Below are positions 17,942 to 46,963 of a stretch of DNA of 64,000 bases, piece after piece. The notes under the pieces were generated by a model, which saw nothing but the letters and a program-made list of their open reading frames with translations, was not told the DNA's origin and searched no databases. The stretch is from an uncultured Chryseobacterium sp. GTDB taxonomy: Bacteria > Bacteroidota > Bacteroidia > Flavobacteriales_F > PHOS-HE28. The stretch spans positions 6,495 through 70,494 of the forward strand of contig CAYMXP010000001.1 in assembly GCA_964394425.1 (NCBI GenBank), given 5' to 3'. Numbering within the stretch: position 1 is the stretch's first letter; the number at the start of each line of letters is the position of its first letter. Both the position numbers and the translations under genes were made by a program.

Positions 17942-17976
17942 ACCCCCGCCCGCTGGACCGCACCTACATTTATCCC

Positions 17977-19746: not shown

Positions 19747-19840
19747 ACCCCGGTGCACGCCTCGGGCGAACGATCCCTCGATCGCGATCGAACCCCGGCG
19801 GATCGCACCGGTCCTATTTTGGCTTCCGCAACGGTCGATC

Positions 19841-21418
19841 ATGGAGCTCAAGACCCGCACCCTGTTGATCCTGGCCCTGGCGACCCGCGGGCCATCGCAC
19901 GCGCAAACGCCCACCTGGGCGGATGACGTGGCCTGCATCGTGTACAGCCATTGCACCACCTGCCACCGCGACGGCGGCGCGGGCCCGTTCGCACTGGAAA
20001 CCTACGCCCAGGCCTTCGTCAAGCGCGATGACATCCAGGACGTGACGGGGGTGCGCTACATGCCGCCCTGGCCGCCCGATGAGGGATACGTGAGCATGGC
20101 GCACGAACGCGTGCTCACGCAGGAGGAGATCGACATCATCGCGGCATGGGCCGATGGCGGCGGACCCGAAGGCGATCCCGGCAACGCCCCCGATCCACCG
20201 GTGTTCACCAGCGGCTGGGTGATCAGTGCGCCCGACATCACCGTGAAGATGGCCGACTACACCATCCCAGCCATCAGCGAGGACCTCTACCGCGCCTTCG
20301 TGCTCCCCAGCGGCAACACAACGGACCAGTTCATCACCGGGTTCGAGGTGATCCCAGGCAACAGCGAGGTGGTGCATCACGTGCTGGTGTTCCAGGACAC
20401 CACCGGCCAGGCGCAGGCCCTTGACGATGCCGACCCCGATCCGGGGTACACCGCATTCGGCGGCATCGGCGTGGATGACCCCAAATTGATCGGCTTCTGG
20501 GTGCCGGGCTCACAACCCCATTTCACCCCACCGGGCATGGGCATGCGCCTTTATGCGGGCGCGGACATCGTCATCCAGGTGCATTACCCGGAAGATGCCG
20601 ATGCGGAGCTGGACAGCACGCGGGTGAATTTCCAGCTGGATCCCAACCCCTTCCTGCGCGGCCTCTCGATCGACGCGGTCCTGGAGCACACCTTGACGAT
20701 GACCGACGGTCCGCTGATCATCGCGCCCAACACGGTGCGGACCTTCCACAACCAGTTCACCATACCCATTCCCACCACCATCACCGCCGTCGCTCCACAC
20801 GGCCACCTGATCTGCGTCGCCATGAAGTCGTGGGCCGTGACCCCGACGAACGACACCATCCCGCTCATTGACATCCCTGATTGGGACTTCCACTGGCAGG
20901 GGCTGTACGAGTTCCGGCATCCGATCTACCTGCCCGCGGGATCAACGTTGTACGGCGAAGCCACCTACGACAACACGTCCGCCAATCCGCACAACCCGAA
21001 CGATCCCCCGCAATGGGTCTTTCTCGGCGAAGCGACCACCGATGAGATGATGCTCTTCTTCTTCGCGTGGACCTGGGGCTTTCCGTCCGACACCAACATC
21101 GTGATCGACGTCAGCCCGCATGCTGCGCACCACGAGGGCTGCACCACGAGCTTTCCCATCGGAATGAGTGGAACGATCGATCCGGACGATGTGCGCCTGT
21201 GGCCATCGCCTGCCGGGGATGTGCTGAACGTAGAGCTCCTGTCTGGTCCATCGGACATGCTTCTGCATGATGCATCGGGGCGGGTGGCCCTGCGCAAGAG
21301 GCTGGCCAACGGGATGAACAGCGTGGCGGTCGGCGCACTTTCGCGCGGTGCCTACATGGTCGAGATCCGCTCGCGCAGTGGCACCCCGCTCCTTCGATGC
21401 AGCATCGTGTTGGAATGA
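19841..21418 (+). CDS. secreted copper type-II ascorbate-dependent-monooxygenase-like (PHM/DBH-like) protein with N-terminal CXXCH motif, T9SS cargo
   Basis: 525 aa. Signal peptide ...PSHA|Q. CTTCH at nt 19952-19966. PHM-like ligand pattern HHVLVF, VIQVHYP, PHGHLICVAM, TTDEMMLFF. C-terminal T9SS CTD (LWPSPAGDVLNVEL...GAYMVEIRS...SIVLE). Confidence 0.75.
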   Translation: MELKTRTLLILALATRGPSHAQTPTWADDVACIVYSHCTTCHRDGGAGPFALETYAQAFVKRDDIQDVTGVRYMPPWPPDEGYVSMAHERVLTQEEIDIIAAWADGGGPEGDPGNAPDPPVFTSGWVISAPDITVKMADYTIPAISEDLYRAFVLPSGNTTDQFITGFEVIPGNSEVVHHVLVFQDTTGQAQALDDADPDPGYTAFGGIGVDDPKLIGFWVPGSQPHFTPPGMGMRLYAGADIVIQVHYPEDADAELDSTRVNFQLDPNPFLRGLSIDAVLEHTLTMTDGPLIIAPNTVRTFHNQFTIPIPTTITAVAPHGHLICVAMKSWAVTPTNDTIPLIDIPDWDFHWQGLYEFRHPIYLPAGSTLYGEATYDNTSANPHNPNDPPQWVFLGEATTDEMMLFFFAWTWGFPSDTNIVIDVSPHAAHHEGCTTSFPIGMSGTIDPDDVRLWPSPAGDVLNVELLSGPSDMLLHDASGRVALRKRLANGMNSVAVGALSRGAYMVEIRSRSGTPLLRCSIVLE

Positions 21419-21864: not shown

Positions 21865-21906
21865 GCAGCGTTTGTCAAGGTTGAAGCATCACGGAATTGG
21901 AACCAC

Positions 21907-22836
21907 ATGAAGAAGATTCTCAACCTACTTCTGACTTTGAGCACATCGATGAGCCTTCATGCGCAAAGCACTGACCATTACTTGTACTTTGAACCATTCG
22001 CTGGTGGAGCGGATATCAGTTTGGACTCGATTTATCCCGGGGGTATCTGGCAAGTAGGCGCACCCGACAAACCGGCCTTCAACATTGCACCATCCCCACC
22101 GAATGCCCTTGTCACCGATACCGCAGCCCCATATGCGATCGACACGACGGCATATGCAGAGTTCCATGTTCCGGTTTTCTTTTTCGGCGAATGGATAACA
22201 GTAGAGTACAATCACCGGATGGATGCCGATAGCGGCGCGGCATATGGCTGGATCGAGTATTTCGAGCCCTACCTGGGCGAGTGGAAGATCGTGAAGGATG
22301 ATGATCCCCTGCCTCAAGGGTTCATCACCGCATCATGCCCTCAAGCAATGCCTACTGACAGTGGCTGGATCTATACTGGAGGCGATGCCACAATGCAGTT
22401 CGATAGTGTGACATTTTGGTGTATTGGAGTGCTACAAGGTGACTTGTATCGCGCCGGTGGTAATGACACGCTTCGATTACGATTTGCCTTCAAGGGGATG
22501 GCCAACACAACTGGTCGCGATGGCTGGATGATCGATAACGTGCTCATCAAGAACTATGGATGCGGAGGCGGGATTGGAGAGAACATAACTGGAGTACTGG
22601 AAGTATCGCCAAATCCAGCTGATCAGGTCATCTTCGTCACAGCCAATGTTCCTATCGGCGAAGAAGCATCCGTCGAGATCTTTCGCTCGGATGGAGCGTC
22701 CATTTATGGTTACAAGACGCAGTATCTCGGGTCATTCCAGCTCGACCTGAGGCAGTACTTGTCTGGCCCTTACATGTTACGCATCACCACCGACGACGCC
22801 CAAATCAGCCAGCGGATCATCATTCAGCATTGGTAG
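21907..22836 (+). CDS. hypothetical T9SS cargo protein on a low-GC cassette
   Basis: 309 aa. Signal peptide ...MSLHA|Q. C-terminal T9SS CTD (LEVSPNPADQVIFV...GPYMLRITTDD...IIIQHW). Sampled 60-nt lines are about 42-47% GC, against about 65% in the flanks. Confidence 0.8.
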   Translation: MKKILNLLLTLSTSMSLHAQSTDHYLYFEPFAGGADISLDSIYPGGIWQVGAPDKPAFNIAPSPPNALVTDTAAPYAIDTTAYAEFHVPVFFFGEWITVEYNHRMDADSGAAYGWIEYFEPYLGEWKIVKDDDPLPQGFITASCPQAMPTDSGWIYTGGDATMQFDSVTFWCIGVLQGDLYRAGGNDTLRLRFAFKGMANTTGRDGWMIDNVLIKNYGCGGGIGENITGVLEVSPNPADQVIFVTANVPIGEEASVEIFRSDGASIYGYKTQYLGSFQLDLRQYLSGPYMLRITTDDAQISQRIIIQHW

Positions 22837-28067: not shown

Positions 28068-31000
28068 ATGTTCCGCACCACGCTCAGCACCTGTTTTCTA
28101 GTCCTGTTCTCGGCCGCCTTCGCCCAGCTTGAAGAGCACAAATACACCGAGCAAGCCGCGCTGCCCGATTGGGTTCAGCTCATGTACGCTCCCGATCCCG
28201 ACCCCGGCGCGGTGCAGGCGGCGTACGAGGCCTACTACGCCACGCATCCCTTCGTGAAGAACGGCCACACCCAGTACTACAAGCGCTGGCGCAGGGTGAT
28301 CGGTCACGAGCAGGTGCCGATGGATCCCGCGCAACGGGCCACCTACACGCAGGACCTTCGGGACTACCTGGATGCCTGCGAGGCGGCCCGCGGCGCGCGC
28401 AGCACCCCCTGGACCTGCATCGGCCCCTTCGACTGGGACCACGGCGCGGCCAGCAAGAGCTACGCCTGCGGGGCGGCCCATGTGTACACCGTGGAGCAGA
28501 GCGCGAGCAACACCAACCTGATCTACGCCGGCACCGCCAACGGCGGCGTGTGGAAGAGCACGGACAAGGGCCTGAACTGGAGCAACACGACCAAGAGCAT
28601 GATGGTCGGCACCGTGCTCAGCGTGGAGATCGACTGGAGCAACGAGAACATCGTCTACTTCGGCGCGGAAGGCGACCTGTGGAAGACCACCAACGGCGGC
28701 ACGAACTGGAATGCGATCGGCGATGCCGCCTTCCAGGGGCTCTCGCATTCCATCCGCGACCTGGTGCTGCACCCCACCAACAGCCAGAAGCTCTTCGTAT
28801 GCAGCAACCAGGGCCTCTACCGCAGCGACGACGGCGGCGCGAACCTCACGCAGGTGCAAACGGGCACGTGGCAGGAACTGGAGTTCAAGCCCGGTGACCC
28901 GAACACCATCTACGCGATCAAGCAGACCGGCAACCGCACCGAGTTCTGGCGCAGCACCAACGGGGGCACCTCATTCACCCAGGTGGGCACCAACTGGCCC
29001 AACCCGACCAGTCCCGACGAGAACGAGCGCACGGAGATCGCCGTGAGCGCCGCGGCGCCCAATACCGTGTACGCGCTCTGCACCGGCGCGGCCGATGGCG
29101 GGAGCGGCCTCTACGGCGTGTACCGCAGCACCGACAGCGGCTCCACCTGGTCTTTCCAATGCTGCGGCACCGGTCCGGGCGGGGTGCCTTCGCCCACCAA
29201 CCTGAACCTGATGGGCTGGGACGACCAGGGACAGGACGACGGCGGGCAGTACTACTACGACCTGGCCTTCGCCGTGGATCCCGCCAACGCGAGCAAGGTG
29301 CATGTGTGCGGCGTGCAGCGCTGGGTGAGCACCGATGCCGGTGTCACCTTCACCTGCCCGGCCAAGTGGAGCCACAGCAGCGATCCGGATTACATCCATG
29401 CGGACATCCACGACATGCGGTTCTATGGAAGCGAGATCTGGGTGGCCTGCGACGGCGGCATCTTCTACAGCAGCGATGCCGGCGCCACCTTCAACCGCCG
29501 CATGTTCGGGATCGCGGGCACCGATTTCTGGGGCTTCGGCGCCGGCGGATGGACCGGCAGCCAGGTGATGCTCGGCGGCACCTACCACAACGGCACGCTG
29601 CTCAAGGACAACAACGTGTACATCAACGGCTGGATCAGCACCGACGGCGGCGACAACTTCCGCGGCTTCGTGCATCCGCAGTACGACCGGCGTGCGTTGA
29701 GCGACTACGGGTACAAGATCCTCAGCGGCGACCGCACCGTGGCCAACGGCAACGCCTCGTGGAGCCGCGAGCCCAACGCCAGCTACATCACCGGAGAAAG
29801 CAGCGAGGTGGCCTGGCACCCCAACCTCGTGAACACCGCCTACGTGGGCGAGGGCAATTCGCTCTGGCGCACCGACGACAACGGGGCCTCCTTCGCGCAG
29901 GTGCATGACTTCGGCGAGAAGGTGACCAGCATCGAAGTGGCCTTCAGCGATCCGAACACCCTCTACGTCTGCACCTACCTGGGCTGGTGGGACACCAAGC
30001 GCGTGTGGCGCAGCACCAACGCCGGCGCCGGATGGACGGACATCACGCCATCGAGCGCCACGCTGAACGGCAACACCTGGGTGCCCTACGACATCGCCGT
30101 GAGCGGCACCGACCCGCAGACGATCTGGCTCGTGCGCACCTCGCAGTACGGCAACAGCCCCAACCTGAACGGCTACGTGGTCTTCAAGAGCATCAATGGC
30201 GGCACCGCCTGGACCAACATCACCGATGCGAACCTGAACGGGGAGTGGCCCACCAACATCGCGCACCAACTGGGCGGCAACGGCGCGCTCTATATCGGCA
30301 CGCGGCGGGCGGTGTACTTCCGCAGCGACGCGGCGCCCGGCTGGACCCTGTGGAACGCGGGCCTTCCCTCGCGGATCTTCAGCACGCGGCTGCTGATCAA
30401 CTACAAGGAGGGCAAGATCCGCAACGGCACCGATCGCAGCGTGTGGGAGACCAACCTGGAGACCGCTTCGCCCCCGCTGGCCAACTTCTCCGCCGACCGG
30501 CAACTGACCACCTGCCTCTCGCCCACCGTGCAGTTCTGGGACAACAGCGCGCTGAACGGTGCCTCGGCCACCTGGTCCTGGGCCTTCCCCGGCGGAAGCC
30601 CGGCCACCAGCACCATCCGCAACCCGGTGGTGACCTACACCACGCCTGGATCGCACGACGTGAGCCTTACGGTGACCGACGTGAACGGCACCAGCAGCCG
30701 GACGATCGCCGGCTTCATCACCATGAGCAACACCGGCACGGGCACGGACTTCATCGAGGGCGTGGACGCCGGGCTGGCCGCGCCACCGGGATGGACCCTG
30801 CAGAACCCCGACGGCAGCGACACCTGGAGCACGGTGAACCTGGCCAATGGTCCGGATTGCTCGGCCACCAACGCCTGGCGCATGGACCACTACTACTACA
30901 ACGCCTCCGGCCAGGAGGATCGCCTGATCACGCCGCTGATCACGCTGGGCGGATCGACCGGAACGCGCCTGCGCTTCGATCATGCATACGTTCAATACGG

Positions 31001-32015
31001 CGGCGGCTACGACGATGCCTTCCGCGTGGAGATCAGCACCAACTGCGGCGGCGCATGGACCCAGCTCTACTACGCCGCCGGTGCCGGCCTCGCCACCGCG
31101 CCCAGCAACGGCAACCCATGGGAGCCCACGAACTGCAGCCAATGGCAGGCGCACGACATCGACCTGAGCGCATACGATGGAATGAGCGTGCTGCTGCGCT
31201 TCACCGCGATCAACGACTACGGCAACCGCTTCTACATGGACAACGTGGAGGTGGTGAACACCGGCATGCGCCTCGCCCTGAAGCTGATGCTCGAGGGGGC
31301 CTACGACAGCGGCACGCTGAAGATGCGCGACGACCTGCGCGTCGCCGGCATCCTGCCCTCGACGGAGCCCTACTCCGCCCTGGGCTTCACACAGGCCGGT
31401 GATGGAGGCGGCGAGGTGATGCAGGCCGGTGCGACCTCCGCCACGGGTGACAACGCGATCGTGGACTGGGTGCTGGTCGAGTTGCGCAACGCGGTCACCC
31501 CGGCGACGATCACCGCCACGCGCGGCGCGCTGGTGCAGCGCGACGGCGACGTGGTGGCCGAGGATGGCTACTCTCCGGTTTCGCTGCTCGCCACCGCCGG
31601 TAGCTATCATGTCGCGGTGCGGCACCGGAACCATCTGGGGGCGATGACGAACGCACCGGCGGCTCTTTCAACCACGGCGACGGCCATCGACTTCACCAAC
31701 ACCGGCTTCGCCACCTACGGCACGCAGGCCCAAAAGACCATCGGTAGCGTGAACGTGCTCTGGATGGGCAACGCGAAGAAGGACACTCCCCCTCCCAGCC
31801 TGCTGAAATACACCGGCATCAACAACGATCGCGATCACATCCTCGACCTCCTGGGCGGTTCCGTTCCCACGGCGACCCTCCCGTGTTACTGCACCGGGGA
31901 CTGCACCATGGACGGGGTGGTGAAGTACACCGGCCTGTTCAACGACCGCGATCCGATCCTGGTGAACATCGGGGGCACGGTGCCCACGAACACGAGGACG
32001 GAGCAGTTGCCGTGA
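28068..32015 (+). CDS. giant secreted BNR/Asp-box (sortilin/VPS10-like) repeat protein with PKD-like, MAM-like and novel C-terminal module
   Basis: 1315 aa from ATG 28068. Signal peptide ...SAAFA|Q. About 11 Asp-box motifs (STDKGLNW, TTNGGTNW, STNGGTSF, STDSGSTW, STDAGVTF, SINGGTAW...). A PKD-like segment and a MAM-like segment. The C-terminal ~245 aa are shared with 36145-38346. No T9SS type-A CTD. Confidence 0.85.
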   Translation: MFRTTLSTCFLVLFSAAFAQLEEHKYTEQAALPDWVQLMYAPDPDPGAVQAAYEAYYATHPFVKNGHTQYYKRWRRVIGHEQVPMDPAQRATYTQDLRDYLDACEAARGARSTPWTCIGPFDWDHGAASKSYACGAAHVYTVEQSASNTNLIYAGTANGGVWKSTDKGLNWSNTTKSMMVGTVLSVEIDWSNENIVYFGAEGDLWKTTNGGTNWNAIGDAAFQGLSHSIRDLVLHPTNSQKLFVCSNQGLYRSDDGGANLTQVQTGTWQELEFKPGDPNTIYAIKQTGNRTEFWRSTNGGTSFTQVGTNWPNPTSPDENERTEIAVSAAAPNTVYALCTGAADGGSGLYGVYRSTDSGSTWSFQCCGTGPGGVPSPTNLNLMGWDDQGQDDGGQYYYDLAFAVDPANASKVHVCGVQRWVSTDAGVTFTCPAKWSHSSDPDYIHADIHDMRFYGSEIWVACDGGIFYSSDAGATFNRRMFGIAGTDFWGFGAGGWTGSQVMLGGTYHNGTLLKDNNVYINGWISTDGGDNFRGFVHPQYDRRALSDYGYKILSGDRTVANGNASWSREPNASYITGESSEVAWHPNLVNTAYVGEGNSLWRTDDNGASFAQVHDFGEKVTSIEVAFSDPNTLYVCTYLGWWDTKRVWRSTNAGAGWTDITPSSATLNGNTWVPYDIAVSGTDPQTIWLVRTSQYGNSPNLNGYVVFKSINGGTAWTNITDANLNGEWPTNIAHQLGGNGALYIGTRRAVYFRSDAAPGWTLWNAGLPSRIFSTRLLINYKEGKIRNGTDRSVWETNLETASPPLANFSADRQLTTCLSPTVQFWDNSALNGASATWSWAFPGGSPATSTIRNPVVTYTTPGSHDVSLTVTDVNGTSSRTIAGFITMSNTGTGTDFIEGVDAGLAAPPGWTLQNPDGSDTWSTVNLANGPDCSATNAWRMDHYYYNASGQEDRLITPLITLGGSTGTRLRFDHAYVQYGGGYDDAFRVEISTNCGGAWTQLYYAAGAGLATAPSNGNPWEPTNCSQWQAHDIDLSAYDGMSVLLRFTAINDYGNRFYMDNVEVVNTGMRLALKLMLEGAYDSGTLKMRDDLRVAGILPSTEPYSALGFTQAGDGGGEVMQAGATSATGDNAIVDWVLVELRNAVTPATITATRGALVQRDGDVVAEDGYSPVSLLATAGSYHVAVRHRNHLGAMTNAPAALSTTATAIDFTNTGFATYGTQAQKTIGSVNVLWMGNAKKDTPPPSLLKYTGINNDRDHILDLLGGSVPTATLPCYCTGDCTMDGVVKYTGLFNDRDPILVNIGGTVPTNTRTEQLP

Positions 32016-32016
32016 T

Positions 32017-34509
32017 CTATCGCACGATCACGAACCGGCCTGAACAGATCCCGGATCGTCCTGTGGTGCGGATCAAATAGATGCCTTGGGCAAGTTGACC
32101 GGTCTGGATAACCGCCGACCGATCCGATCTGATCGTCGTTCGCACCGGGGCCATTCTGCCATCAAGATCGATTACTTCCAGTGCGCCCTTGGTCAGGTCG
32201 CAGGCGCATTCGATCCTCACCTGATCAACCGCTGGAGATGGGAAGACGTGGATCAACGACTTCGTGAATTCGGATATCGGATCGATCACGCCGACCGGAA
32301 GCTCATTCCAGCAAACCTTCGGGATGTTATCGTCTACAAGGAGGATGTCGAGCGAACCGTTCTGGTCAAGGTCCGCCAGTTCCAATTGCAGCAACCCCCA
32401 GGATTGATATGAAATGTCGCCTTGGATGTAGTGCTCGGTCCAGGGGTCATGCGGATCCCCCGCGTTCTTCATCCAGAACAGCCGAGCCTCATATTCGGGG
32501 TAGAACCCCGATCCATAATCCAGTAGTACAAGATCGTCATGACCATCCAGATCAATGTCTCCAGCGGAAATTCGGAACAGGCCATCCTCTTCGAATAGTT
32601 GCACTGGAGCGCCCAGAGACCCACCCGTATTCGGATACCACCACGCATGTTCGGCGGCCAGGGTCAGCAGATCGACCCATCCATTTTGGTCAAGATCATG
32701 AAGGGCGATGTCGCGAGGTGGGAATGGAAGAGTATCGATATCGGGAAGCCATTGGAAATAGGGTGCGGCTCCGAGATTCTCAATGCGCTTTATCGCATGG
32801 CCATCATCCGCATCAAGGTCGAACGCGAGGATATCAGGGTCACCATCATGGTCTGGATCCCAAGGTCCGGCAGCCAGCGCGGCCGCCCCCAGCAACGAAT
32901 CAGTGAATTCGAAATGCCCATCGCCATCGGTATCCAAGGACCAGCGAAAACGATCTCCAGTTCGATCAAGGATATCCAAGTATCCGTCACCATCAATATC
33001 GACCAGGTCACATGAGGCGCCATAGTCGAATGTCGCGATGGTATCAAGGGTAAAGCTTTGGAACAGACTGTCCGCGCTGCTCAGGAGACCGATCTGTTCC
33101 CATGGCCCAGTGAGATGCGAGACAAGCAGATCCTGATCACCGTCGCTCGCCACATCGCCTATCGCGAACGACCGGACGATCTCGAACCGGTCAGTAAGAA
33201 CTCGATCGATGGTGAACGTCCGGTCAGGTTCTGTGTGAAGGAGCGAGATCCGTTGATCGTCCTGAGAAACGAGCAATAATGTCAGCGGTGCGCCTGGCCA
33301 TAAGCTCATTGTGTCCACCCTTACTGGTCCCCCGGCGTTCCCCTGACCGAATGGATTGAGCATATGCTGGCTTGGGAGCTGTGCGAAGGCAATGTCTACC
33401 CTCTCGTACCATTCAACCCTGTCGGATCCACCCCCCCTCGTGAAGATGAGGTCATCCAGCCCGTCCGCATTGAGGTCCCGCATCAAGGCGTGGCGGTAGT
33501 CATGCGAGTAGATCGGGATGTAGACAACTTGATCGAAGTTGCCGGCGCCATCGTTCATCAGGCGGTCCATGTAGAAGGACGAGGTGCGCTGAATGAGCAT
33601 ATCATGGTCGCCATCGCCATTCAAGTCGCCTACTAAGATCACTTCCCGCGCCGAGCTGTTCATGTAAATGGTTTCGGCATTGGAGAAGCCCCCAAGGCTG
33701 TCCTGTAGATGAAGGAACTGCCCCGAGGAAGGATCACTTGTGTTCACCACCAGGTCTTCCCGGTCATCTCCATTGAGGTCCGCATGGAAAACCCGGTCCA
33801 ATGTTGCCAGATCATCAAGGAGCAATGCCGGGCTTGAAAGATCCGCGCTCCCGGTCGTATCCTTACAACTATAAAGGGCGGTGCTTCCGATCGGGTTGAA
33901 CAGTACCTCCATTGTGTCGTTGAGATCGAGATCCACGATCTCCATCCACGCGTTGGACGTCGGTAGCATGATGAGCGTATCGATCATGGGAGTTCCTGAA
34001 ATCTCGACCCAAAGCAGCTCCCCGTTCGGGTGTGCCGAAACGAGCAGATCCGGAAACGCATCGTGGTCAAGGTCTCCCACTGCCATGGACTTGACGGACC
34101 AGGAAACACCCTGCGATTCAAGGAGGAAACCCGGATCGAACTGGCCGGTACCTCCGATGTTCAAAAACGCGGCAACACCGCCATTTCCATGTAACAGCAC
34201 ATCGTTATCACCATCGGCATCGATGTCCGCGATCGCAAGTGCGCGGAGGAAATAGATCGTGTCGCAGATGAGGTGAGGTATGAGCAGATCTTCGCTCCCT
34301 TTGTACAACACAAGATCGCTGGACCCTTCGAACGTTGTCATCACGTCCGTTATCGCATCTCCATCCAGGTCGCCAATGGCGGTCATGAATGGATCCGTGT
34401 AGACCGGAACGATCGGCTGGGGATAACTGAATTGTGCGGTGGCGATCACCGGGAATGCCAGCAATGGCGCTACCCCAGCAATGTGCTTGACAATTCTTTC
34501 GATCAGCAT
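32017..34509 (-). CDS. FG-GAP/VCBS-repeat protein, T9SS cargo
   Basis: 830 aa. Signal peptide ...VIATA|Q. Many D-x-D/N-x-D-G-x-x-D loops (DLDGDAITD, DIDADGDNDV, DLNGDDREDL, DIDGDGYLDI...). C-terminal T9SS CTD (IHVFPSPAVDQVRIE...GIYLIRTTG...FVIVR). Sampled lines are 50-60% GC, below the flanks. Confidence 0.85.
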   Translation of the reverse strand: MLIERIVKHIAGVAPLLAFPVIATAQFSYPQPIVPVYTDPFMTAIGDLDGDAITDVMTTFEGSSDLVLYKGSEDLLIPHLICDTIYFLRALAIADIDADGDNDVLLHGNGGVAAFLNIGGTGQFDPGFLLESQGVSWSVKSMAVGDLDHDAFPDLLVSAHPNGELLWVEISGTPMIDTLIMLPTSNAWMEIVDLDLNDTMEVLFNPIGSTALYSCKDTTGSADLSSPALLLDDLATLDRVFHADLNGDDREDLVVNTSDPSSGQFLHLQDSLGGFSNAETIYMNSSAREVILVGDLNGDGDHDMLIQRTSSFYMDRLMNDGAGNFDQVVYIPIYSHDYRHALMRDLNADGLDDLIFTRGGGSDRVEWYERVDIAFAQLPSQHMLNPFGQGNAGGPVRVDTMSLWPGAPLTLLLVSQDDQRISLLHTEPDRTFTIDRVLTDRFEIVRSFAIGDVASDGDQDLLVSHLTGPWEQIGLLSSADSLFQSFTLDTIATFDYGASCDLVDIDGDGYLDILDRTGDRFRWSLDTDGDGHFEFTDSLLGAAALAAGPWDPDHDGDPDILAFDLDADDGHAIKRIENLGAAPYFQWLPDIDTLPFPPRDIALHDLDQNGWVDLLTLAAEHAWWYPNTGGSLGAPVQLFEEDGLFRISAGDIDLDGHDDLVLLDYGSGFYPEYEARLFWMKNAGDPHDPWTEHYIQGDISYQSWGLLQLELADLDQNGSLDILLVDDNIPKVCWNELPVGVIDPISEFTKSLIHVFPSPAVDQVRIECACDLTKGALEVIDLDGRMAPVRTTIRSDRSAVIQTGQLAQGIYLIRTTGRSGICSGRFVIVR

Positions 34510-34613
34510 ACTCCGCCAAGGTAGAAGGATCTGTCACAGGCCCCCCGGCCAGATCCCTGACCCGGATATCTTCGCCTTCCATGCTAACAGCAGGCATCGG
34601 GTGCGGGCTATTT

Positions 34614-36144: not shown

Positions 36145-38346
36145 ATGGGATACCGCCCGTATTGGACCGCTTGTGTCGCGGCCACGGCCTTCTGCCTGCG
36201 CATCGAGGCGCAGACCTACACGCTCAACACCACGCCGCTCACCAATGAGGCGGCCCGCTCCGGGGGTTGCGTGGGCATCACCGACATGGACGGCGATGGC
36301 TACGACGACCTGGTCCTGCTGAACCAGAGCAAGGACCTCTACGTCGACTACCAGAACGCGAACGGCACCTACACCTCGCACTCCTATGGCACGGTGTCCG
36401 GCTCAAGCCAGTGGGGCATGGCCGTGGGCGACGTGGACAACGACGGTCACAAGGATCTCGTGAGCGGGGGCAACGGCGATGGCGTGCATTTCGTGGAGAT
36501 CAGCGGCCGGGGCGTGTACACGCCCGTGACCAACCTGAACAACGGCACCATGTTCATGCAGTGCATGAACATGGCTGACATCAACAACGATGGCAGCCTG
36601 GACGTGTTCGGCTGCCACGACAATGCCGCTCCGCGGATCTGGCTGAACAACGGCAGCGGGGCGTTGAGCTACAACAACTACGTCAACTTCGCCACCACCC
36701 CGTACAGCGACATGAGCGGCAACTACGGCAGCACCTTCACCGATTTCGACAACGATGGTGACCTGGACTTTTATATCTCAAAATGCCGCCAGGGCGTGAA
36801 CGACCCGAACGACCCACGACGGTGGAACCGGCTCTTCGTGAACGACGGCAACAACAACTACACCGACCAGGCCGCGGCTTACGGCGTGGAGAACCACGAG
36901 CAGTCCTGGTCGAGCGACTTCGCCGACATCGACAACGACGGCGATCTGGACCTGATCACCGCGAACCACAGCACCACCATCCAGTTGTTCCTGAACGACG
37001 GCACCGGCCATTACACCAATGCCACCTCGGGCAGCGGGCTGCAGTTCTCCGGGTTCTTCCTTCAGAGCAAGTGTGAAGACCTGGACAACGACGGCTTCAT
37101 CGACCTGCTGGTCACCGAGGGCAATTACTACTTCCACAACAACGGCAACGGCACCTTCACGCGGATCACCAACCTGCTGCCCCACCCGACCGGCTCTCAC
37201 GTGCTGCACTCCTTCGCCATGGGCGACATGGACCACGACGGCGACATCGACATCTACGCCAGTTACGGCACGGGCTATGTGAACCCGAGCACCTCCCGCG
37301 ATGATGAGCTCTACCTGAACAACGGAAACAGCAACCACTGGCTCAACTTCCAGCTCACGGGCAACGCCAGCAACCGCGACGCGGTCGGGGCGCGGGTCAC
37401 GATCCATGGTCCGTGGGGCAGGCAGATCCGCGAGGTGCGTGCTGGTGAGAGCTATGGCATCGTGTGCTCCTTCACCTGCCACTTCGGGCTCGGCACACAA
37501 GTGGAGGCCGACTCCGCGATCGTGCAGTGGCCCAGCGGTACGGTGGACAAGTTCTTCAACGTGGCGGCCGACCAATGGATCAAGGTGGTGGAAGGCCAGA
37601 CCAGCCGCTCGGTGGTGGCGGTGAAGGCCTTCCTGGAAGGGCCGTACGTGCAGTTGAACGGCGACATGAGCGATGCCCTGCGCACGGGCGGTTTCGTGCC
37701 ATTGCAGATGCCCTACACCGCACCGTCGTTCGTGATCACCGGAGCCCCCTGCATCGAAAAGATCCCCCAATCCGTGCTGACCCCCTCGGGCGCCGATGCG
37801 ATCGTCGACTGGGTATGGCTCGAACTGCGCGATGGCTCAACGCCCACCACCGTGGTGGCGGCGAGACCGGCCTTGTTGCAACGCGATGGCGACGTGGTGG
37901 AACTGGACGGCTTCCGTCCGGTGGCCATGGGCGTGGCCAACGGACCGTATCGCCCGGTGGTCAGGCATAGGAACCACCTGGGCGTGATGACCGCTGGCAC
38001 GTTGGTGCTCGGATCCCCGCCCACCGCGGTGAACTTCACCCTGCCGGCCACGATCACCTATGGCACCGACGCCAGGAAGAACATATCCGGCGTCATGGTC
38101 CTTTGGGCCGGCAACGTCATTGGAGATGCGGCGGTCAAGTACACCGGCCTGTTCAACGACCGTGACCAGATCCTCAACAAGATCGGTGGGTCGGTGCCCA
38201 CGATCACGGTCAGCGGCTACTGGCCCGAGGACGTGAACCTGAACGGGGTGGTCAAGTACACCGGCCTGTTCAACGACCGCGATCCGATCCTGGTGAACAT
38301 CGGAGGGGCGGTGCCCACCAACGTGCGGGTGGAACAGCTGCCGTAG
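36145..38346 (+). CDS. secreted FG-GAP + ASPIC/UnbV (CRTAC1-like) protein with the same novel C-terminal module
   Basis: 733 aa from ATG 36145 (track ORF opens at 35965). Signal peptide ...LRIEA|Q. FG-GAP loops (DMDGDGYDDL, DVDNDGHKDL, DFDNDGDLDF, DIDNDGDLDL...). UnbV_ASPIC-like RDAVGARVTIHGPWGRQIREVRAGESYG. C-terminal ~243 aa shared with 28068-32015. Confidence 0.85.
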   Translation: MGYRPYWTACVAATAFCLRIEAQTYTLNTTPLTNEAARSGGCVGITDMDGDGYDDLVLLNQSKDLYVDYQNANGTYTSHSYGTVSGSSQWGMAVGDVDNDGHKDLVSGGNGDGVHFVEISGRGVYTPVTNLNNGTMFMQCMNMADINNDGSLDVFGCHDNAAPRIWLNNGSGALSYNNYVNFATTPYSDMSGNYGSTFTDFDNDGDLDFYISKCRQGVNDPNDPRRWNRLFVNDGNNNYTDQAAAYGVENHEQSWSSDFADIDNDGDLDLITANHSTTIQLFLNDGTGHYTNATSGSGLQFSGFFLQSKCEDLDNDGFIDLLVTEGNYYFHNNGNGTFTRITNLLPHPTGSHVLHSFAMGDMDHDGDIDIYASYGTGYVNPSTSRDDELYLNNGNSNHWLNFQLTGNASNRDAVGARVTIHGPWGRQIREVRAGESYGIVCSFTCHFGLGTQVEADSAIVQWPSGTVDKFFNVAADQWIKVVEGQTSRSVVAVKAFLEGPYVQLNGDMSDALRTGGFVPLQMPYTAPSFVITGAPCIEKIPQSVLTPSGADAIVDWVWLELRDGSTPTTVVAARPALLQRDGDVVELDGFRPVAMGVANGPYRPVVRHRNHLGVMTAGTLVLGSPPTAVNFTLPATITYGTDARKNISGVMVLWAGNVIGDAAVKYTGLFNDRDQILNKIGGSVPTITVSGYWPEDVNLNGVVKYTGLFNDRDPILVNIGGAVPTNVRVEQLP

Positions 38347-38352
38347 TCGCGC

Positions 38353-38604
38353 TCAGGAGGCCTTGCGCAAGTGGAAGGGCTTCACGGTGCTCAGATCGCC
38401 GTCGAGCACCATGAGGTAATACTCCTCGCCCTCCAGATCGGTGATGCGCACGCGCGTTTCGCTGCCATTCACCGCGCCGGTCTTCACGATGTGGCCCTGG
38501 CGGTCGCAGATGTCGAACAGCGCGCCTTCGGTGGCGGGATCGTAGTCGAACATCAGCAGGCGCTCGATCTGGTCGATGCGGATGCGGATCTCGTGCTGGG
38601 ACAT
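38353..38604 (-). CDS. small cytoplasmic hypothetical protein (83 aa) with CTD-like beta-sandwich pattern
   Basis: Starts at ATG 38604; the rest of the 405-aa track ORF is antisense to the response regulator. MSQHEIRIRIDQIERLLMFDYDPATEGALFDICDRQGHIVKTGAVNGSETRVRITDLEGEEYYLMVLDGDLSTVKPFHLRKAS. Strongly GC3-biased. No signal peptide. Confidence 0.6.
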   Translation of the reverse strand: MSQHEIRIRIDQIERLLMFDYDPATEGALFDICDRQGHIVKTGAVNGSETRVRITDLEGEEYYLMVLDGDLSTVKPFHLRKAS

Positions 38605-38745
38605 GGCGGATGGGAATGCGGCCCTTCGTACGGCACGCCGCCGCCCGGGTTGCGGGGGGGCGACCGGCTCGCCGCCTTGACCGCTGAAGCGCAGGTTGGA
38701 TCCGAAGGCCGCGGGCGCTTGCATTTGCCCATCTTCACCTCCGGA

Positions 38746-39525
38746 ATGAGCACCCGGCCACTGCGCACCCTGATCGTGGACGATGAGGAACCCGCCCGCG
38801 AGAACCTGCGCCTGATGATGGCCCATGAGTGCCCGCAGGTGGAGGTGGTGGGCACGGCCGATGGCGTGGCGCACGCCCGGGGGCTCATCGCCGAACTGGA
38901 TCCCGATCTGCTCATGCTCGACATACGCATGCCCAGCGGGGCCGAGGGACTGGACCTGCTGGAGCAACTGCCGGACCTGCGGGCGATGGTGGTCTTTGTC
39001 ACCGCCTTCAAGGACTACGCCGTGCAGGCCTTCCATGCCAACGCGGTTGACTACATCCTCAAGCCGATCGATGCGGACGAGCTGAAGGCCGCGGTGGAAA
39101 AGGCGGAAGCGCGGCTCGCGCGCATGCGCGGCGATGGAGACGAGCGGCAGCGGTACCGCGACGACCTCCACGCGCTGGTGGGGCAGATCCGCGAGCATGG
39201 GCCGGAACGCATCGCCGTGGACCATGCGCGAGGTTTCAAGCTCTTCGACCCGCGCACCATCGCGCACCTGGAAGCCGACGGCAACTGCACCCTGCTGCAC
39301 TTCACCGACGGCAGCCGCTACCTGGATACGCGCACCATGAAGGTGTACGAGGACATGCTCGATCCCCTGCGGTTCCTCAAGGTCCACCGCTCGCACCTGA
39401 TCAATCTGGACCAGTTGAAGGAGTACCTCCGCGAGGAGGGCCACTGGGCGGTGATGAAGACCGGAGAACGCGTGCCCATCGCGCGCAACCGCATCGACCT
39501 CTTCCTGGAGGCGGTGCGCGGCTGA
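38746..39525 (+). CDS. LytTR-family response regulator (paralog 1)
   Basis: 259 aa from ATG 38746. Receiver LRTLIVDDE...LLMLDIRMP. LytTR DNA-binding domain ...FLKVHRSHLINLDQL. Confidence 0.9.
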   Translation: MSTRPLRTLIVDDEEPARENLRLMMAHECPQVEVVGTADGVAHARGLIAELDPDLLMLDIRMPSGAEGLDLLEQLPDLRAMVVFVTAFKDYAVQAFHANAVDYILKPIDADELKAAVEKAEARLARMRGDGDERQRYRDDLHALVGQIREHGPERIAVDHARGFKLFDPRTIAHLEADGNCTLLHFTDGSRYLDTRTMKVYEDMLDPLRFLKVHRSHLINLDQLKEYLREEGHWAVMKTGERVPIARNRIDLFLEAVRG

Positions 39526-39636
39526 CCGTTCGCTCCCCGATCCGCACCGTTCGCTCGATCGGACCGGCACCCGGCCACATGCCCGTGTCGCGGCATCGCG
39601 GCGCGGCTATTTTTTCACGCACAAACCCCCGTTGCC

Positions 39637-40392
39637 ATGTTGCGCACCTTGATCGTGGACGATGAGCCCGATGCGCGGGATAACCTGCGCCTCCTGCTCG
39701 AAGAGCATTGCCCCGAAGTGGAGGTGGTCGGCCTGGCCGGAAATGTCCCGGATGCACGCGCGATGATCGACCGCCTGGACGTGCAGGCGCTCTTCCTGGA
39801 CATCAAGATGCCCGGCGAGGATGGGTTCGACCTGCTCCGGTCGCTGAACGGTCGTGAGCTGGGCGTGGTCTTCACCACCGCGCACGACGGCTTCGCCTTG
39901 CGGGCCTTCAAGGAGAACGCCGTCGATTACCTGGAGAAGCCGGTGGATGTGGACCTGCTCAAGCGCGCGGTGGACAAGTTGTGCCGGCTCGCCACCGGCG
40001 CAGGGCTGGCCGGCCAGCGTCATGGGGCCGTCGGAGCACTGATGAACGATCCGACCTTGCCGATGAGTTCGCGCCTCGCCGTGCCAGGCCGCGACGGGCT
40101 CATGCTGCACCGCTACGACGAGATCCTTTACCTGGAGGGGAACGACAGCTATACCACGATCCACTTCACCGACGGACGGCACAGCCTCAGCAGCCGGCAC
40201 ATCCGCCTGTTCGAATCGGGGCTCGATCCCCGGCGGTTCTTCCGCATCCACAAGAGCTACATCATCAACCTGCAGCACCTCGTGGGCTTCAACCGGGCCG
40301 AGGGCAACATGGCGTTGATGAGCGGAGGGAAGATGCTGCCCGTTGGCCGCCGCCGCATCCCGGAATTCCTGGCCATGATCCACAGCTATTGA
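39637..40392 (+). CDS. LytTR-family response regulator (paralog 2)
   Basis: 251 aa. Receiver LRTLIVDDE...ALFLDIKMP. LytTR domain ...FFRIHKSYIINLQHL. Possible own -7-like box TATTTTTT at 39607-39614. Confidence 0.9.
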   Translation: MLRTLIVDDEPDARDNLRLLLEEHCPEVEVVGLAGNVPDARAMIDRLDVQALFLDIKMPGEDGFDLLRSLNGRELGVVFTTAHDGFALRAFKENAVDYLEKPVDVDLLKRAVDKLCRLATGAGLAGQRHGAVGALMNDPTLPMSSRLAVPGRDGLMLHRYDEILYLEGNDSYTTIHFTDGRHSLSSRHIRLFESGLDPRRFFRIHKSYIINLQHLVGFNRAEGNMALMSGGKMLPVGRRRIPEFLAMIHSY

Positions 40393-43300
40393 TGCACCCG
40401 GTCCACCCCTTCGTCCGGTCGATCATCACGGCCGCGGGAACGGCCGCGGGATGCCTATGTGCCGCCCAGCAGCATGCGTTCATTCAGTACACCACGCGCG
40501 ACGGGCTTTCCCAATCGCAGGTGCGCTGCATGACGCAGGATCCGCGCGGTTACCTCTGGTTCGGGACGCTCGGCGGACTGAGCCGGTTCGATGGCCTGGT
40601 GTTCTCCAACCATGCGTTGCAGGAAGGATTGCCCGATCCGCAGGTGAACGCCCTGTGGACCGATACCGCCGGGCTCTGGCTGGGGGCCGGCGATCATCTG
40701 GTCCGATACGATGGGAACCGGTTCGTGGCGGTCGTGCTGCCGGGTGCGGACCATGCACGCGTGATGGCGGTGACGGGCGATGGCATGGGGCGCTACATCG
40801 CCACCGATGGGGCCGGCGTGTACCGGATGAAGGGGAATGGGATCTCACGGCTGGCCGGCTATCCTTCCGATACCGCCGAAGGAGCTCGCGCGCTGTTGCT
40901 CGATCGGGAAGGACGCCTGTATGTCGGACTGCGGAACGGCCTGCTCCAATGTGCCGATGGGACCTGTCGCGCGGTGGATCTGGGCGATGCGCGACCCAAG
41001 AGCGTGAGCGCGCTCGCACTGGATGGTCGGGGCACGCTCTGGGTGGGGACCTTCGGCGATGGACTGTTCGAGGTCAGCGGGGGGCGCACCGTGCGCAACA
41101 TCACCGAGGAGGACGGGCTGTTGCAGAACAACATCCGCTGCCTGTTGCTGGACGATCTGGGCCGGCTTTGGGTGGGCTCCAAGTTCGGGCTGAACCGCAT
41201 CGAAGGCACGCGGATCCGGGCCTTCACCGTTCACCAGGGCCTGCCCAACGACAACATCTGGTGCGGCATGACCGATCGCGATGGCCAGCTCTGGTTCGGC
41301 ACCGACGGCGCCGGCGTGTTGCGTTACACCGGCGACCGCTTCGTGACCTTCACGACCGCCGATGGCCTGTGCAGCGACCAGGTGATGAGCATCACCGCCG
41401 ACGCGGCCGGTGACCTGTGGCTTGGCACGTACGGGAACGGTGTCTGCCGGTTGGACGCCATGGCCATGGTCACGACGCTCGACGGCCTTCCGAACAACAC
41501 CATCTGGTGCGGCCTTCGTGACACCGGTGGCGGCATGTGGTTCGGCACCAGCGATGGTCTCTGCCGCATCGAGAACGGCGTGGTGATGCCCCTGCCCCAT
41601 GGCGTCCCGCTGAAGGACGAGCGCGTGCTTTCGCTCCATCGGGCATCCGATGGCACGCTTTGGTGCGGCACGCGCGAGGGTTTGCATGCGCGCACGACCG
41701 CCGGCGCGATCATCACCCACGCGGCGGGACCCGGTGGCCCGGGCCGGTCGATCCGCAGCATCGTTCCGGACGATCAAGGTGGGCTATGGCTCGCCACGGA
41801 TGAAGGCATCGCCCACTTCGAGGGCGGACGTTTCTCGCGGATCGACATCGCCGAAGGATTGTCCGATAACACGGTGTTCTGCCTGCTGCGCGATGAACGG
41901 GGACGGCTTTGGGCGGGAACGGCCAACGGGCTGTCGTGCTTGGCGAACGGCCGGCCCCGCATCCTGCGGCTGGGGCAGGATTTCGGCTCCAACTACATCG
42001 ATCTGCTCCTTGCCGGCGACGATGGCCGCATCTGGGCGGGCACCAACAACGGGCTCTTCGCCTTCTACCCCGACAGCCTGCTGGTCGACCCATCCAACGC
42101 ACACCACTACGATCTGGCCGACGGCTTGCGCGACCTTGAGTTCAATCTGAACGCCGCATGGAAGGATCCGTCGGGACGGCTGTATTTCGGGACCGCGGGG
42201 GGCCTGCTCGTTCATGATCCCGCGCGCTCGGCCGAAGCGCGGCCGGAACGGCCGCCGGTCGTTCACATCACCGGGTTGCGCTCCTTTCTCCGACCGATGG
42301 ACTGGAGCGCGGTGAGCGACAGCCTGCAACCGGGCACCGGATCGCCGATCGGCCTGCGGCTGCCCTTCCGCCGCAACCACCTGACCTTTGATTACGCCGC
42401 CATCCAGACCACGCATCCGGAACGCGTGCGCTACCGCTACCGGCTGGTGGGCTCCGATCAGGATCCGATGCCGCCCACCACCGACCGTTCCGCCACCTAC
42501 GGCAACCTGGTGCAGGGCGCATACACCTTCGAAGTGATGGCCAGCGACGATGGCCGCCACTGGAGCCCTCCGGCCACCTTCAGCTTCACCATCGAGAAGC
42601 CTTTCTGGGCGCGCACCTGGTTCCATCTGTCCACGGTGCTGGCGCTGGCCGGTACCGCGCTGGCCGTTCACCGCTTCCGCCGGCAGCGGCGCGCGCGGCG
42701 GGAAAAGACCCGGCAGCTCATGCTCCGTTCGCGCATGCTGCAACTGGAACAGCAGGCCCTGAACGCGAACATGAACCGGCACTTCGTGTTCAACGCCCTC
42801 AACAGCATCCAGTATTACATCAATCGACAGGACCGCGACGCGGCCAACCGCTACCTCACCAGTTTCGCGCGGCTCATCCGCAGGAACCTGGATGCCAGCC
42901 AGGGCGATACCACCACGCTGGCCGAGGAGATCGAGCGCCTGGAGATCTACCTCGAACTGGAACACATGCGGTTCAAGGACCGGTTCCAATACCACATCGC
43001 GGTGGATCCCTCGGTGCAGGCCGCCAGGGTGCGCATTCCGGCCATGATGTTGCAGCCCTACGTGGAGAACAGCATCTGGCACGGCATCCTGCCCATGGAC
43101 CGGCCGGGCACGGTGCGGATCGACATCCGCATGGAGGGCGACCGCATCCGCGTGCTGATCGAGGACGATGGGATCGGCATCGAGGCCAGCCGACAAGGCA
43201 AGATCGGCACCTCCGGCGACCATATCTCCCGGGGCATCGAGATCACCAAGGGCCGGACCGACGTGCTGCGCCGCCTGCACCTGGCCGATATCCGGATCGA

Positions 43301-43442
43301 CGGCCCCGAACCCGCCACCGCCGCGGATGGCACCCGGCGCGGCACACGCGTGGTGGTGGACCTTCCCGGGGGGAACGGGTCGGAACGTGACGAAGGGGCG
43401 TTGCGAACGGCCACCCCGGACACTACTTTTGGGGGGTCATGA
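40392..43442 (+). CDS. sensor histidine kinase: periplasmic two-component-regulator beta-propeller/Y_Y_Y repeats + LytS-type His_kinase/HATPase
   Basis: 1016 aa from ATG 40392 (TGATG overlap with RR2; track ORF opens at 39981). Repeated ...GLSQSQVRCMTQDPRGYLWFGT.GGLSRFDG... propeller units. One TM (WFHLSTVLALAGTALAV). H-box NRHFVFNALNSIQYYI, N-box ENSIWHG, G-box IEDDGIGI. Confidence 0.88.
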   Translation: MHPVHPFVRSIITAAGTAAGCLCAAQQHAFIQYTTRDGLSQSQVRCMTQDPRGYLWFGTLGGLSRFDGLVFSNHALQEGLPDPQVNALWTDTAGLWLGAGDHLVRYDGNRFVAVVLPGADHARVMAVTGDGMGRYIATDGAGVYRMKGNGISRLAGYPSDTAEGARALLLDREGRLYVGLRNGLLQCADGTCRAVDLGDARPKSVSALALDGRGTLWVGTFGDGLFEVSGGRTVRNITEEDGLLQNNIRCLLLDDLGRLWVGSKFGLNRIEGTRIRAFTVHQGLPNDNIWCGMTDRDGQLWFGTDGAGVLRYTGDRFVTFTTADGLCSDQVMSITADAAGDLWLGTYGNGVCRLDAMAMVTTLDGLPNNTIWCGLRDTGGGMWFGTSDGLCRIENGVVMPLPHGVPLKDERVLSLHRASDGTLWCGTREGLHARTTAGAIITHAAGPGGPGRSIRSIVPDDQGGLWLATDEGIAHFEGGRFSRIDIAEGLSDNTVFCLLRDERGRLWAGTANGLSCLANGRPRILRLGQDFGSNYIDLLLAGDDGRIWAGTNNGLFAFYPDSLLVDPSNAHHYDLADGLRDLEFNLNAAWKDPSGRLYFGTAGGLLVHDPARSAEARPERPPVVHITGLRSFLRPMDWSAVSDSLQPGTGSPIGLRLPFRRNHLTFDYAAIQTTHPERVRYRYRLVGSDQDPMPPTTDRSATYGNLVQGAYTFEVMASDDGRHWSPPATFSFTIEKPFWARTWFHLSTVLALAGTALAVHRFRRQRRARREKTRQLMLRSRMLQLEQQALNANMNRHFVFNALNSIQYYINRQDRDAANRYLTSFARLIRRNLDASQGDTTTLAEEIERLEIYLELEHMRFKDRFQYHIAVDPSVQAARVRIPAMMLQPYVENSIWHGILPMDRPGTVRIDIRMEGDRIRVLIEDDGIGIEASRQGKIGTSGDHISRGIEITKGRTDVLRRLHLADIRIDGPEPATAADGTRRGTRVVVDLPGGNGSERDEGALRTATPDTTFGGS

Positions 43443-46915: not shown

Positions 46916-46942
46916 GGGTTGTGAGGGAAGGATGAACGGCAC

Positions 46943-46950
46943 CAAAAATA
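46943..46950 (-). promoter_or_regulatory. Bacteroidetes-type -7 promoter box
   Basis: The minus strand reads TATTTTTG, a perfect TAnnTTTG match, 28 nt upstream of start 46915. It sits within CCCGCCTATTTTTGG, a motif shared with 60798-60816. Confidence 0.45.
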
Positions 46951-46963
46951 GGCGGGACCGCCG

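Follow-up and report, generated by a model that had tools for sequence, protein, structure and literature searches.

Two genes lying 4 kb apart in a 64,000-nucleotide (nt) stretch of DNA from an uncultured Chryseobacterium sp. (GTDB Flavobacteriales_F; PHOS-HE28; GCA_964394425.1, contig CAYMXP010000001.1, positions 6,495–70,494), referred to here as the window, encode secreted proteins, A and B, that end in the same module of 243–247 amino acids (aa). In our best description, the module is a single unit, in evolution as in structure, in which a prealbumin/transthyretin-like beta-sandwich is followed by a diverged dockerin, the latter predicted to consist of two tandem F-hand repeats, each a calcium loop with a short helix behind it. 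Computation shows its two-part architecture, a chain of homology leading from it to dockerins, and family members that also bear cohesins. Such a layout would be analogous to the X-module–dockerin (XDoc) dyad that makes up the C-terminal end of cellulosomal proteins, and we put the probability at about 55% that the module acts as an XDoc-like tether, by which exported proteins are docked onto cohesin-bearing scaffold or anchor proteins.

The shared C-terminal module and its two parts

Protein A consists of a Sec signal peptide (MFRTTLSTCFLVLFSAAFA, cut before Q), a Sortilin/BNR beta-propeller region, a PKD domain, an InhA-like MAM domain of the choice-of-anchor J type and the C-terminal module (Pfam matches: Sortilin-Vps10, E 2e-23; PKD_4, E 1.4e-10; InhA-like_MAM, E 7e-5). 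Public collections hold it with start calls of 1325 aa (JGI) and 1315 aa (NCBI), and the shorter start, at 28068, gives the cleaner signal peptide. Protein B, for which start calls of 740 or 733 aa are on record, carries a Sec signal peptide (…AFCLRIEA, cut before Q), five FG-GAP/VCBS repeats and UnbV_ASPIC ahead of the module (FG-GAP_3, E 3e-38; UnbV_ASPIC, E 1e-16).

An earlier note on this DNA, made from the sequence alone, had described a C-terminal module of about 245 aa common to two proteins of otherwise unrelated N-terminal architecture. BLASTP bore this out, aligning residues 1079–1325 of protein A with residues 491–733 of protein B with 51% of 247 columns identical (E 2e-68) and giving nothing significant outside the shared C-termini, and a six-frame profile search of the window returned these two copies and no more. 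All the motifs that the note had quoted are present, namely LEG(A/P)Y, AIVDWV.(V/L)ELR, QRDGDVV, RHRNHLG and two occurrences of KYTG..NDRD.IL, together with the loop GDCTMDGVV/EDVNLNGVV and the last residues R.EQLP, which both proteins share up to the stop codon.

An AlphaFold2 (AF2) model of the whole module, computed from a 36-sequence alignment, was confident and compact, with a predicted local distance difference test score (pLDDT) of 90.2 and a predicted template-modelling score (pTM) of 0.89. Residues 1–147 form an all-beta sandwich in this model (pLDDT 90–98), with the near-invariant motifs LEGxY, EPY, DWVxVELR, RDGDVV and HRNHL, and are followed by two strand-helix-strand repeats whose helices (residues 186–194 and 226–232) lie one behind each loop. 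The pTM indicates that the sandwich and the C-terminal half (C-half) would form one compact unit; the C-terminal 100 aa modelled alone gave a less confident result (pLDDT 76). The prediction yielded a confident two-part fold, in which the N-terminal 147-aa beta-sandwich had not been split off in the earlier description. The proposed repetition within the C-half proved to be a true internal duplication of a calcium-loop-plus-helix segment, the first repeat aligning with the second at 99.7% (hhalign, E 7.5e-26).

Neither copy of the module was matched by any model in Pfam-A or NCBIfam, even at E ≤ 10, and at the same threshold searches of the PDB chain sequences with a single sequence or a 36-sequence profile were empty, in agreement with the earlier view that the module has no direct place in a named family. 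Because no Pfam or NCBIfam model exists for the module, proteins that carry it are annotated as hypothetical or by their cargo alone. No description of the sandwich–dockerin unit or of insertion-bearing F-hands was found in the literature searched, and no curated model covers the unit.

Dockerin ancestry and cohesin-bearing relatives

Direct membership of the C-half among dockerins was rejected (see below), and its ancestry was traced through a sister branch. The starting point was P0251, a subtilase-like protein of 1083 aa in which three divergent copies of the sandwich-plus-dockerin unit stand internally in tandem. P0251 shows that in this branch one chain can hold several copies and that the unit need not be terminal. 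A search with one of these copies returned 397 clusters, taken as the sister branch, whose named sources are Ignavibacteriaceae, Ignavibacteria, Ignavibacterium and metagenome-assembled genomes (MAGs) of Bacteroidetes. Its members keep the sandwich (LEGxY … VVDWVLVELR … YYVVIRHRNHLAIMS), their C-half consists of canonical 12-residue F-hands, as in P0366 (GDANMDGQVTSLDFDQF … TDWNMDGQVTSLDFDLL … SKVPN), and they end in a tail, (S/T)-Q-V-P, that is related to the tail of the modules of the kind found in the window (window-type modules).

The sister branch connects both sides. Its members P0322 (26.7 bits) and P0366 (25.2 bits) exceed the gathering score of Dockerin_1 (22.9 bits), and its C-half aligned with the authentic dockerins CelD (4fl4_A) and XynY (1ohz_B) of Clostridium thermocellum, taken from the PDB, at 86.7% (hhalign, E 4.4e-6), with both loops aligned. 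The same C-half aligned with the window-type C-half at 98% (E 2e-13, 69 columns), and the window-family profile matched all 120 of 120 sister proteins (median 114 bits, with intermediates at 175–206 bits). Judged from these profile comparisons, the C-half of the module is homologous to bona fide dockerins via intermediates. The term ‘dockerin-like’ used in the earlier note thus holds by way of the sister branch, where the Dockerin_1 gathering score is passed and Cohesin domains co-occur, and fails as a direct match in all 12 C-halves tried, while the idea of a wholly new kind of domain gives way to a C-terminal half that is a diverged dockerin.

The core of the window-type repeat reads D-x-N-x-D-G-x-V-K-[Y-T-G-x]-x-N-D-R-D-P-I-L. 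In the alignment with the sister branch, hhalign placed four inserted residues (Y-T-G-x) behind loop position 9 of both repeats and set the first D of N-D-R-D against loop position 12; given the two links of the sister branch, to dockerins and to the window type, the latter looks like a dockerin with a four-residue insertion in each calcium loop. Set against the 12-residue EF-hand loop, repeat 2 is 95–99% conserved at its ligand positions among 375 non-redundant window-type modules (position 1, D, 99%; position 3, N/T/D, 97%; position 5, D/N/S, 99%; G at position 6, 95%), and the insertion precedes the acidic residue at position 12.

Like the type I dockerins (PF00404; CelD, XynY), the module has a duplicated D-x-N-x-D-G-x-V calcium-type loop with a short helix, and such dockerins, too, are usually found at the C-terminus of varied signal-peptide-bearing enzymes; homology to them is traceable via the sister branch. 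It differs from them in the Y-T-G-x insertion in each loop, an invariant N-D-R-D-P motif and the short beta-strands that flank the helices in the model, in giving no direct Pfam, HHalign or Foldseek match, in its constant fusion to one particular beta-sandwich of 147 aa, and in ending in R-x-E-Q-L-P.

Cohesins, the binding partners expected of dockerins, occur in both branches. Seven sister proteins of about 375–385 aa (P0278, P0293, P0337, P0338, P0344, P0364 and P0373) consist of a signal peptide, a Cohesin domain above the Pfam gathering score (PF00963, 24.1 bits), the sandwich and the dockerin, and could in principle polymerise head to tail, the cohesin of one on the dockerin of the next. 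Two proteins combine a cohesin with the extended, window-type repeat, namely P0293 and, below the gathering score, P0377 (21.3 bits). Among window-type proteins, P0189 has a cohesin-like domain just under that score (23.2 bits) together with the module, and P0134 (850 aa, tail RVQQLP) combines the module with a signal peptide, Big_2 and three Cohesin stretches (59.9 bits), a putative mini-scaffoldin architecture. A further protein of the cohesin–sandwich–dockerin layout, P0284, scores 22.0 bits for Cohesin, below the gathering score; its neighbourhood (L082/L083) contains genes for giant HYR/PKD adhesins and a gene with a type A C-terminal domain (CTD) of the T9SS (type IX secretion system).

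The gene located 24 nt upstream of that for P0134 (L080, positions 2–2107, + strand; ENA ERZ27280354, k141_1595229; 61% G+C) encodes an incomplete protein. Beta-helix-like repeats occur in it together with a type I dockerin of canonical form (GDVSLNGSVQAFDASQVLQY…GDVTGNGGVTALDASHILQHVVG), a stretch resembling cohesin and a type A CTD (39 bits). All 12 PDB sequence matches of its dockerin were dockerins (best E 1.5e-5), and the cohesin-like stretch was detected by hidden Markov model (HMM; 18.7 bits) and by hhalign (59%, E 1e-4). With dockerin, cohesin-like stretch and type A CTD in one chain, this protein has the architecture expected of a surface anchor and is a candidate for that role in a cohesin–dockerin network on a Bacteroidota-type contig.

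At the level of structure, Foldseek returned no significant PDB match for the model of the whole module (best E 0.1–0.9). Eight of the 14 best matches were XDoc chains of type II cohesin complexes (4wi0_B, 4u3s_B, 2b59_B, 5m0y_B, 4fl4 and 3kcp), all weak (E 0.1–0.9, template-modelling (TM) score 0.26–0.48), and another weak group comprised transthyretin-like domains of carboxypeptidases D/N (TM-target about 0.45, E 0.2–0.9). The module would resemble the XDoc dyads of cellulosomal scaffoldins (2b59_B, 4u3s_B, 5m0y_B) in that a beta-sandwich is packed on a C-terminal dockerin as one rigid unit, and scaffoldin-like relatives of the module, such as P0134, combine cohesins with the C-terminal unit. 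The module departs from them in that these Foldseek matches fall short of significance, comparison of the sequences revealed no similarity, the host organism is a diderm, and the sandwich resembles the transthyretin/carboxypeptidase-regulatory fold more than the Ig-like X-module of XDoc.

Possible roles: docking, secretion signal or ligand binding

In a large protein database, 1,316 clusters at 90% identity match the module, and the named sources among the best 120 of these are all uncultured Flavobacteriales. An exhaustive search of representatives at 50% identity gave 13,131 at E ≤ 1e-3, 10,210 at 1e-10 and 4,517 at 1e-30, counts that stand for the whole superfamily, sister branch included, and of which the loosest may take in a few MAM-only matches because the profile carried about 65 upstream positions. 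GTDB species representatives contain at least 580 confirmed loci; the best 80 of them all come from MAGs labelled Flavobacteriales, Bacteroidetes/Bacteroidota or uncultured Chryseobacterium (an automatic label), many from activated sludge, with several loci in the same MAG. Window-type modules were seen almost only in uncultured Flavobacteriales. With these numbers and a BLASTP E of 2e-68 against it, the idea that the likeness of the two copies is due to local duplication, to domain shuffling within this genome alone or to chance, for which only the 4-kb proximity of the two genes speaks, has a negligible probability, and the earlier expectation that the module is no local duplication was borne out.

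Of 270 family proteins, 268 end at the last residue of the module, as do 108 of the 111 module-bearing open reading frames (ORFs) of 79 related loci, and the module's tail is strongly conserved (last P in 143/146, Q at −3 in 142/146, R at −6 in 122/146). Full-length members mostly start with Bacteroidota-style signal peptidase I signal peptides, cut between A and Q, and 56 representatives carry cargo from 63 Pfam families, including delta-60/DUF5122 propellers, GEVED, PKD, MAM, M36 and M12 peptidases, subtilase, SprB repeats, beta-helix and Kelch, as well as choice-of-anchor J, Q and GloVer domains. Protein P0121 matches the NCBIfam model ‘T9SS-dependent M36 metallopeptidase’ with 779 bits up to profile position 777 of 869, and since this match stops before the CTD, the module occupies the usual place of the CTD. 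At least two module genes occur in 26 of the 79 loci. Their recurrent neighbours are genes for type A CTD cargo and housekeeping genes; after greedy gene selection, neither a conserved partner gene nor an adjoining PorP/SprF-like gene was found in the 79 loci. In one rare non-terminal layout, P0208 (341 aa), the module directly follows the signal peptide, ends in LDQQVP and is succeeded by a Fibrobacter-succinogenes-major-domain-like region, which may be a read-through or gene-calling artefact.

From these data we infer that the window-type module would bind cohesin, depend on calcium and sit at the cell surface. As a probably calcium-dependent protein–protein tether, it would dock varied Sec-exported enzymes and adhesins, here the BNR/PKD/MAM and FG-GAP/ASPIC proteins, onto the lineage's own cohesin-bearing scaffold or anchor proteins, and a cellulosome-like surface assembly would result. 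Consistent with this, cargo of at least 60 Pfam families with Sec signal peptides stands ahead of the module, as is the case with dockerins.

Several results weigh against such docking. Concerning the repeats themselves, Dockerin_1 matched none of 12 window-type C-halves at E ≤ 10; hhalign gave 2–8% probability against the authentic dockerins and aligned only the 11–12-residue D-V-N-x-D-G-x-V loop, compared with 98% in a control of one dockerin half against the other; and Foldseek returned no dockerin or other relevant PDB match for the isolated C-half model. Loop position 3 of repeat 1 is not conserved among the 375 modules, the first loop is degenerate in both window proteins, and the four-residue loop insertions could abolish the canonical geometry of calcium and cohesin binding. 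On the partner side, few members of the window-type family bear a cohesin (2 of 270). The cohesin-like partner envisaged in the earlier note did not come to light either in the 64-kb window or in the 79 related loci (about 0.85 Mb; HMM, and hhalign of ORFs of at least 200 aa). A large protein search with a four-sequence cohesin alignment, a profile that was too weak, added no further cohesins of the lineage, and a metagenome scan with the cohesin region of P0134 found nothing. Moreover, dockerins normally need not end at the very last residue, and the near-absolute terminal position with its invariant Q-L-P tail hints at an extra constraint, for example sorting. Finally, tethering alone leaves unexplained how module proteins that lack a CTD cross the outer membrane.

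Bacteroidota are generally described as exporting surface proteins by means of T9SS CTDs, of which classes A, B and C are recognised (PMC10202324), and the module could be a fourth class of T9SS C-terminal secretion signal, recognised by the translocon or by a dedicated shuttle protein. Its dockerin ancestry would then be incidental or serve a second, post-secretion anchoring role, a possibility compatible with tethering. We regard such a signal as unlikely. With the CTDs of types A (TIGR04183/PF18962), B (TIGR04131) and C (ChiA-type) the module shares its extreme C-terminal placement, here with a near-invariant tail, mutual exclusivity with type A, signal peptides, the phylum and the kinds of cargo, among them the choice-of-anchor domains and the P0121 peptidase; only T9SS-bearing lineages carry it, its genes are interspersed with type A CTD genes, and the T9SS accepts CTD classes as dissimilar as A, B and C, with more than 200 residues needed for type B (PMC10202324). 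The evidence of position and cargo would suit a C-terminal dockerin equally well, and relatives that are internal and tandem (P0251, three copies) or N-terminal (P0208) are unlike a pure secretion signal.

No sequence kinship with the models of the three known classes emerged, as the earlier note had anticipated for types A and B. For type A, no HMM matched, and kinship was rejected by hhalign against a 75-sequence lineage-specific type A profile, which gave a probability below 2% (0.9–1.7%). Type B (TIGR04131/PF13585 CHU_C) gave no match at E ≤ 10 in the module or in 56 full-length relatives, and neither did type C (ChiA-type, T9SS_Cterm_ChiA, cl41395) at E ≤ 10 in NCBIfam, the model being presumably part of release 20.0. 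The absence of any Pfam, NCBIfam or PDB sequence match excludes membership of types A, B and C at the sequence level. The module is about three times as long as a type A CTD, partly helical and built of repeats, its last 100 aa being a duplicated strand-helix-strand with the sandwich N-terminal to it, unlike the terminal beta-sandwich of about 70–100 aa of type A; and unlike type B, it has no adjacent PorP/SprF-like gene, nor any other conserved partner gene.

The type A CTDs themselves were located with the lineage-specific profile, which was seeded from Pfam-positive tails. Exactly seven other ORFs of the window end in such a domain (55–65 bits; Table 1), and A and B are not among them, matching the seven secreted proteins that the earlier note had counted. 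Pfam Por_Secre_tail matched all four of these ORFs that were scanned, with only 20–31 bits, and for this reason the type A CTDs of the lineage are seen as divergent, such that standard annotation would miss several. No module-bearing protein has a significant type A CTD, the best matches being weak internal ones of at most 17.5 bits.

How the module proteins without a CTD would cross the outer membrane can be framed in two ways, both through the T9SS: the unit is itself a fourth signal class, or it docks in the periplasm on a carrier that bears both a cohesin and a type A CTD. We hold a T9SS route of either kind to be speculative and on balance unlikely. By the second way, the folded cargo–carrier complex would be co-exported and left anchored at the surface, with a carrier resembling the dockerin/cohesin-like/CTD protein encoded upstream of P0134. 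If either were true, thousands of Flavobacteriales surface proteins would follow a secretion and anchoring logic undescribed in Bacteroidota.

Quite unlikely, in our estimate, is a role without catalysis in which the module binds or adheres to a ligand other than protein, for example a surface glycan, lipopolysaccharide, the exopolysaccharide of activated-sludge flocs or a mineral or calcium surface, with the dockerin scaffold kept and cohesin binding lost. The loop insertions and the degenerate loop of repeat 1 would then mark divergence from cohesin-binding dockerins, and the many invariant polar residues of the sandwich (DW, ELR, RDGD, HRNH) would be compatible with a ligand pocket; most source habitats are rich in flocs or biofilm, and cohesins are rare among family members, with none in the roughly 0.9 Mb sampled. 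Yet the cohesin-plus-module layout persists across the transition to inserted loops (P0293, P0377, P0189, P0134), binding modules usually vary in position and copy number and are not strictly single and terminal, and neither Pfam nor Foldseek revealed similarity to any carbohydrate-binding module or lectin family.

The proposed tethering has a published precedent. In ‘Ca. Stygibacter’ of the Gram-negative phylum Cloacimonadota, a cellulosome-like system of dockerin-bearing enzymes and a cohesin scaffoldin has been proposed, with a conserved C-terminal domain that attaches the scaffoldin to the cell surface (PMC8542988), and the protein upstream of P0134, with its dockerin, cohesin-like stretch and type A CTD, is comparable. 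The ‘Ca. Stygibacter’ dockerins are recognisable by InterPro, whereas the dockerin of our module has diverged past direct recognition, is fused to the sandwich and is found in thousands of Flavobacteriales clusters. For rumen Prevotella and Bacteroides, dockerins are on record (PMC6487960); the genomes of Bacteroidetes are otherwise said to contain neither cohesins nor dockerins (PMC5831590).

The module occurs in thousands of protein clusters from uncultured Flavobacteriales that abound in activated sludge and habitats like it, and its recognition as a diverged X-dockerin-type unit offers a means of annotating a sizeable part of protein dark matter. Tethering through the module would point to cohesin–dockerin interactions in a phylum usually said to be without them and predicts that peptidases, adhesins and glycosidases are assembled on the surface of these bacteria into multi-protein complexes resembling cellulosomes. 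A testable question arises as well, namely by which route dockerin-tagged proteins without a CTD pass the outer membrane in a T9SS organism, and the insertion-bearing F-hand is a natural variant of interest for the engineering of cohesin–dockerin pairs.

Features of the window and neighbouring genes

Table 1 Genes, module parts and type A CTD-bearing ORFs located in the window
Feature	Position	Strand	Detail	Basis
Gene A	28068..32015	+	1315 aa; alternative upstream ATG at 28038 gives 1325 aa	ORF list
Copy A, part 1, beta-sandwich	31272..31712	+	module aa 1–147	AF2 model, conservation
Copy A, part 2, diverged double F-hand (dockerin-derived) half	31713..32012	+		hhalign, AF2
Copy A, repeat 1	31761–31880	+	degenerate loop GNAKKDtpppSLLKYTG	
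Copy A, repeat 2	31890–32000	+	GDCTMDGVVKYTGLFNDRDPILVNIGG	
Copy A, tail	31995–32012	+	RTEQLP	
Gene B	36145..38346	+	733 aa	ORF list
Copy B, part 1, beta-sandwich	37615..38055	+	module profile 359 bits	BLASTP vs copy A; module profile
Copy B, part 2, diverged dockerin half	38056..38343	+		BLASTP, profile, hhalign
Copy B, repeat 1	38104–38211	+	GNVIGDAAVKYTGLFNDRDQIL	
Copy B, repeat 2	38221–38331	+	EDVNLNGVVKYTGLFNDRDPIL	
Copy B, tail	38326–38343	+	RVEQLP	
ORF with type A CTD	5644–7791	-		lineage-specific profile
ORF with type A CTD	14797–16995	+		lineage-specific profile
ORF with type A CTD	19721–21415	+		lineage-specific profile
ORF with type A CTD	21865–22833	+		lineage-specific profile
ORF with type A CTD	32020–34533	-		lineage-specific profile
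ORF with type A CTD	45053–48253	-		lineage-specific profile
ORF with type A CTD	52571–53659	-		lineage-specific profile

Immediately downstream of gene B lie two suspected LytTR-type response regulators (38371–39525 and 39637–40392, + strand), judged from their translations, followed by a large ORF on the same strand that ends at 43442 and whose translation resembles a two-component-regulator-propeller sensor histidine kinase. These three ORFs within 38371–43442 may constitute a regulatory cassette adjoining the genes for secreted proteins.

The G+C content of the window is 64.7%, and in the window as in the loci L001–L079, at about 60–65% G+C, long antisense shadow ORFs overlie nearly every real gene, as exemplified by an ORF of 887 aa at 28971–31634 on the minus strand inside gene A; such shadow ORFs would mislead ORF-based annotation.

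Elsewhere in the window (17701–21415), RecJ precedes a type A CTD-bearing protein that is copper type II monooxygenase-like, an arrangement that is syntenic in at least two related MAG loci (L046 and L009). By this synteny, the window and the module-rich MAGs are confirmed as members of one Flavobacteriales lineage.

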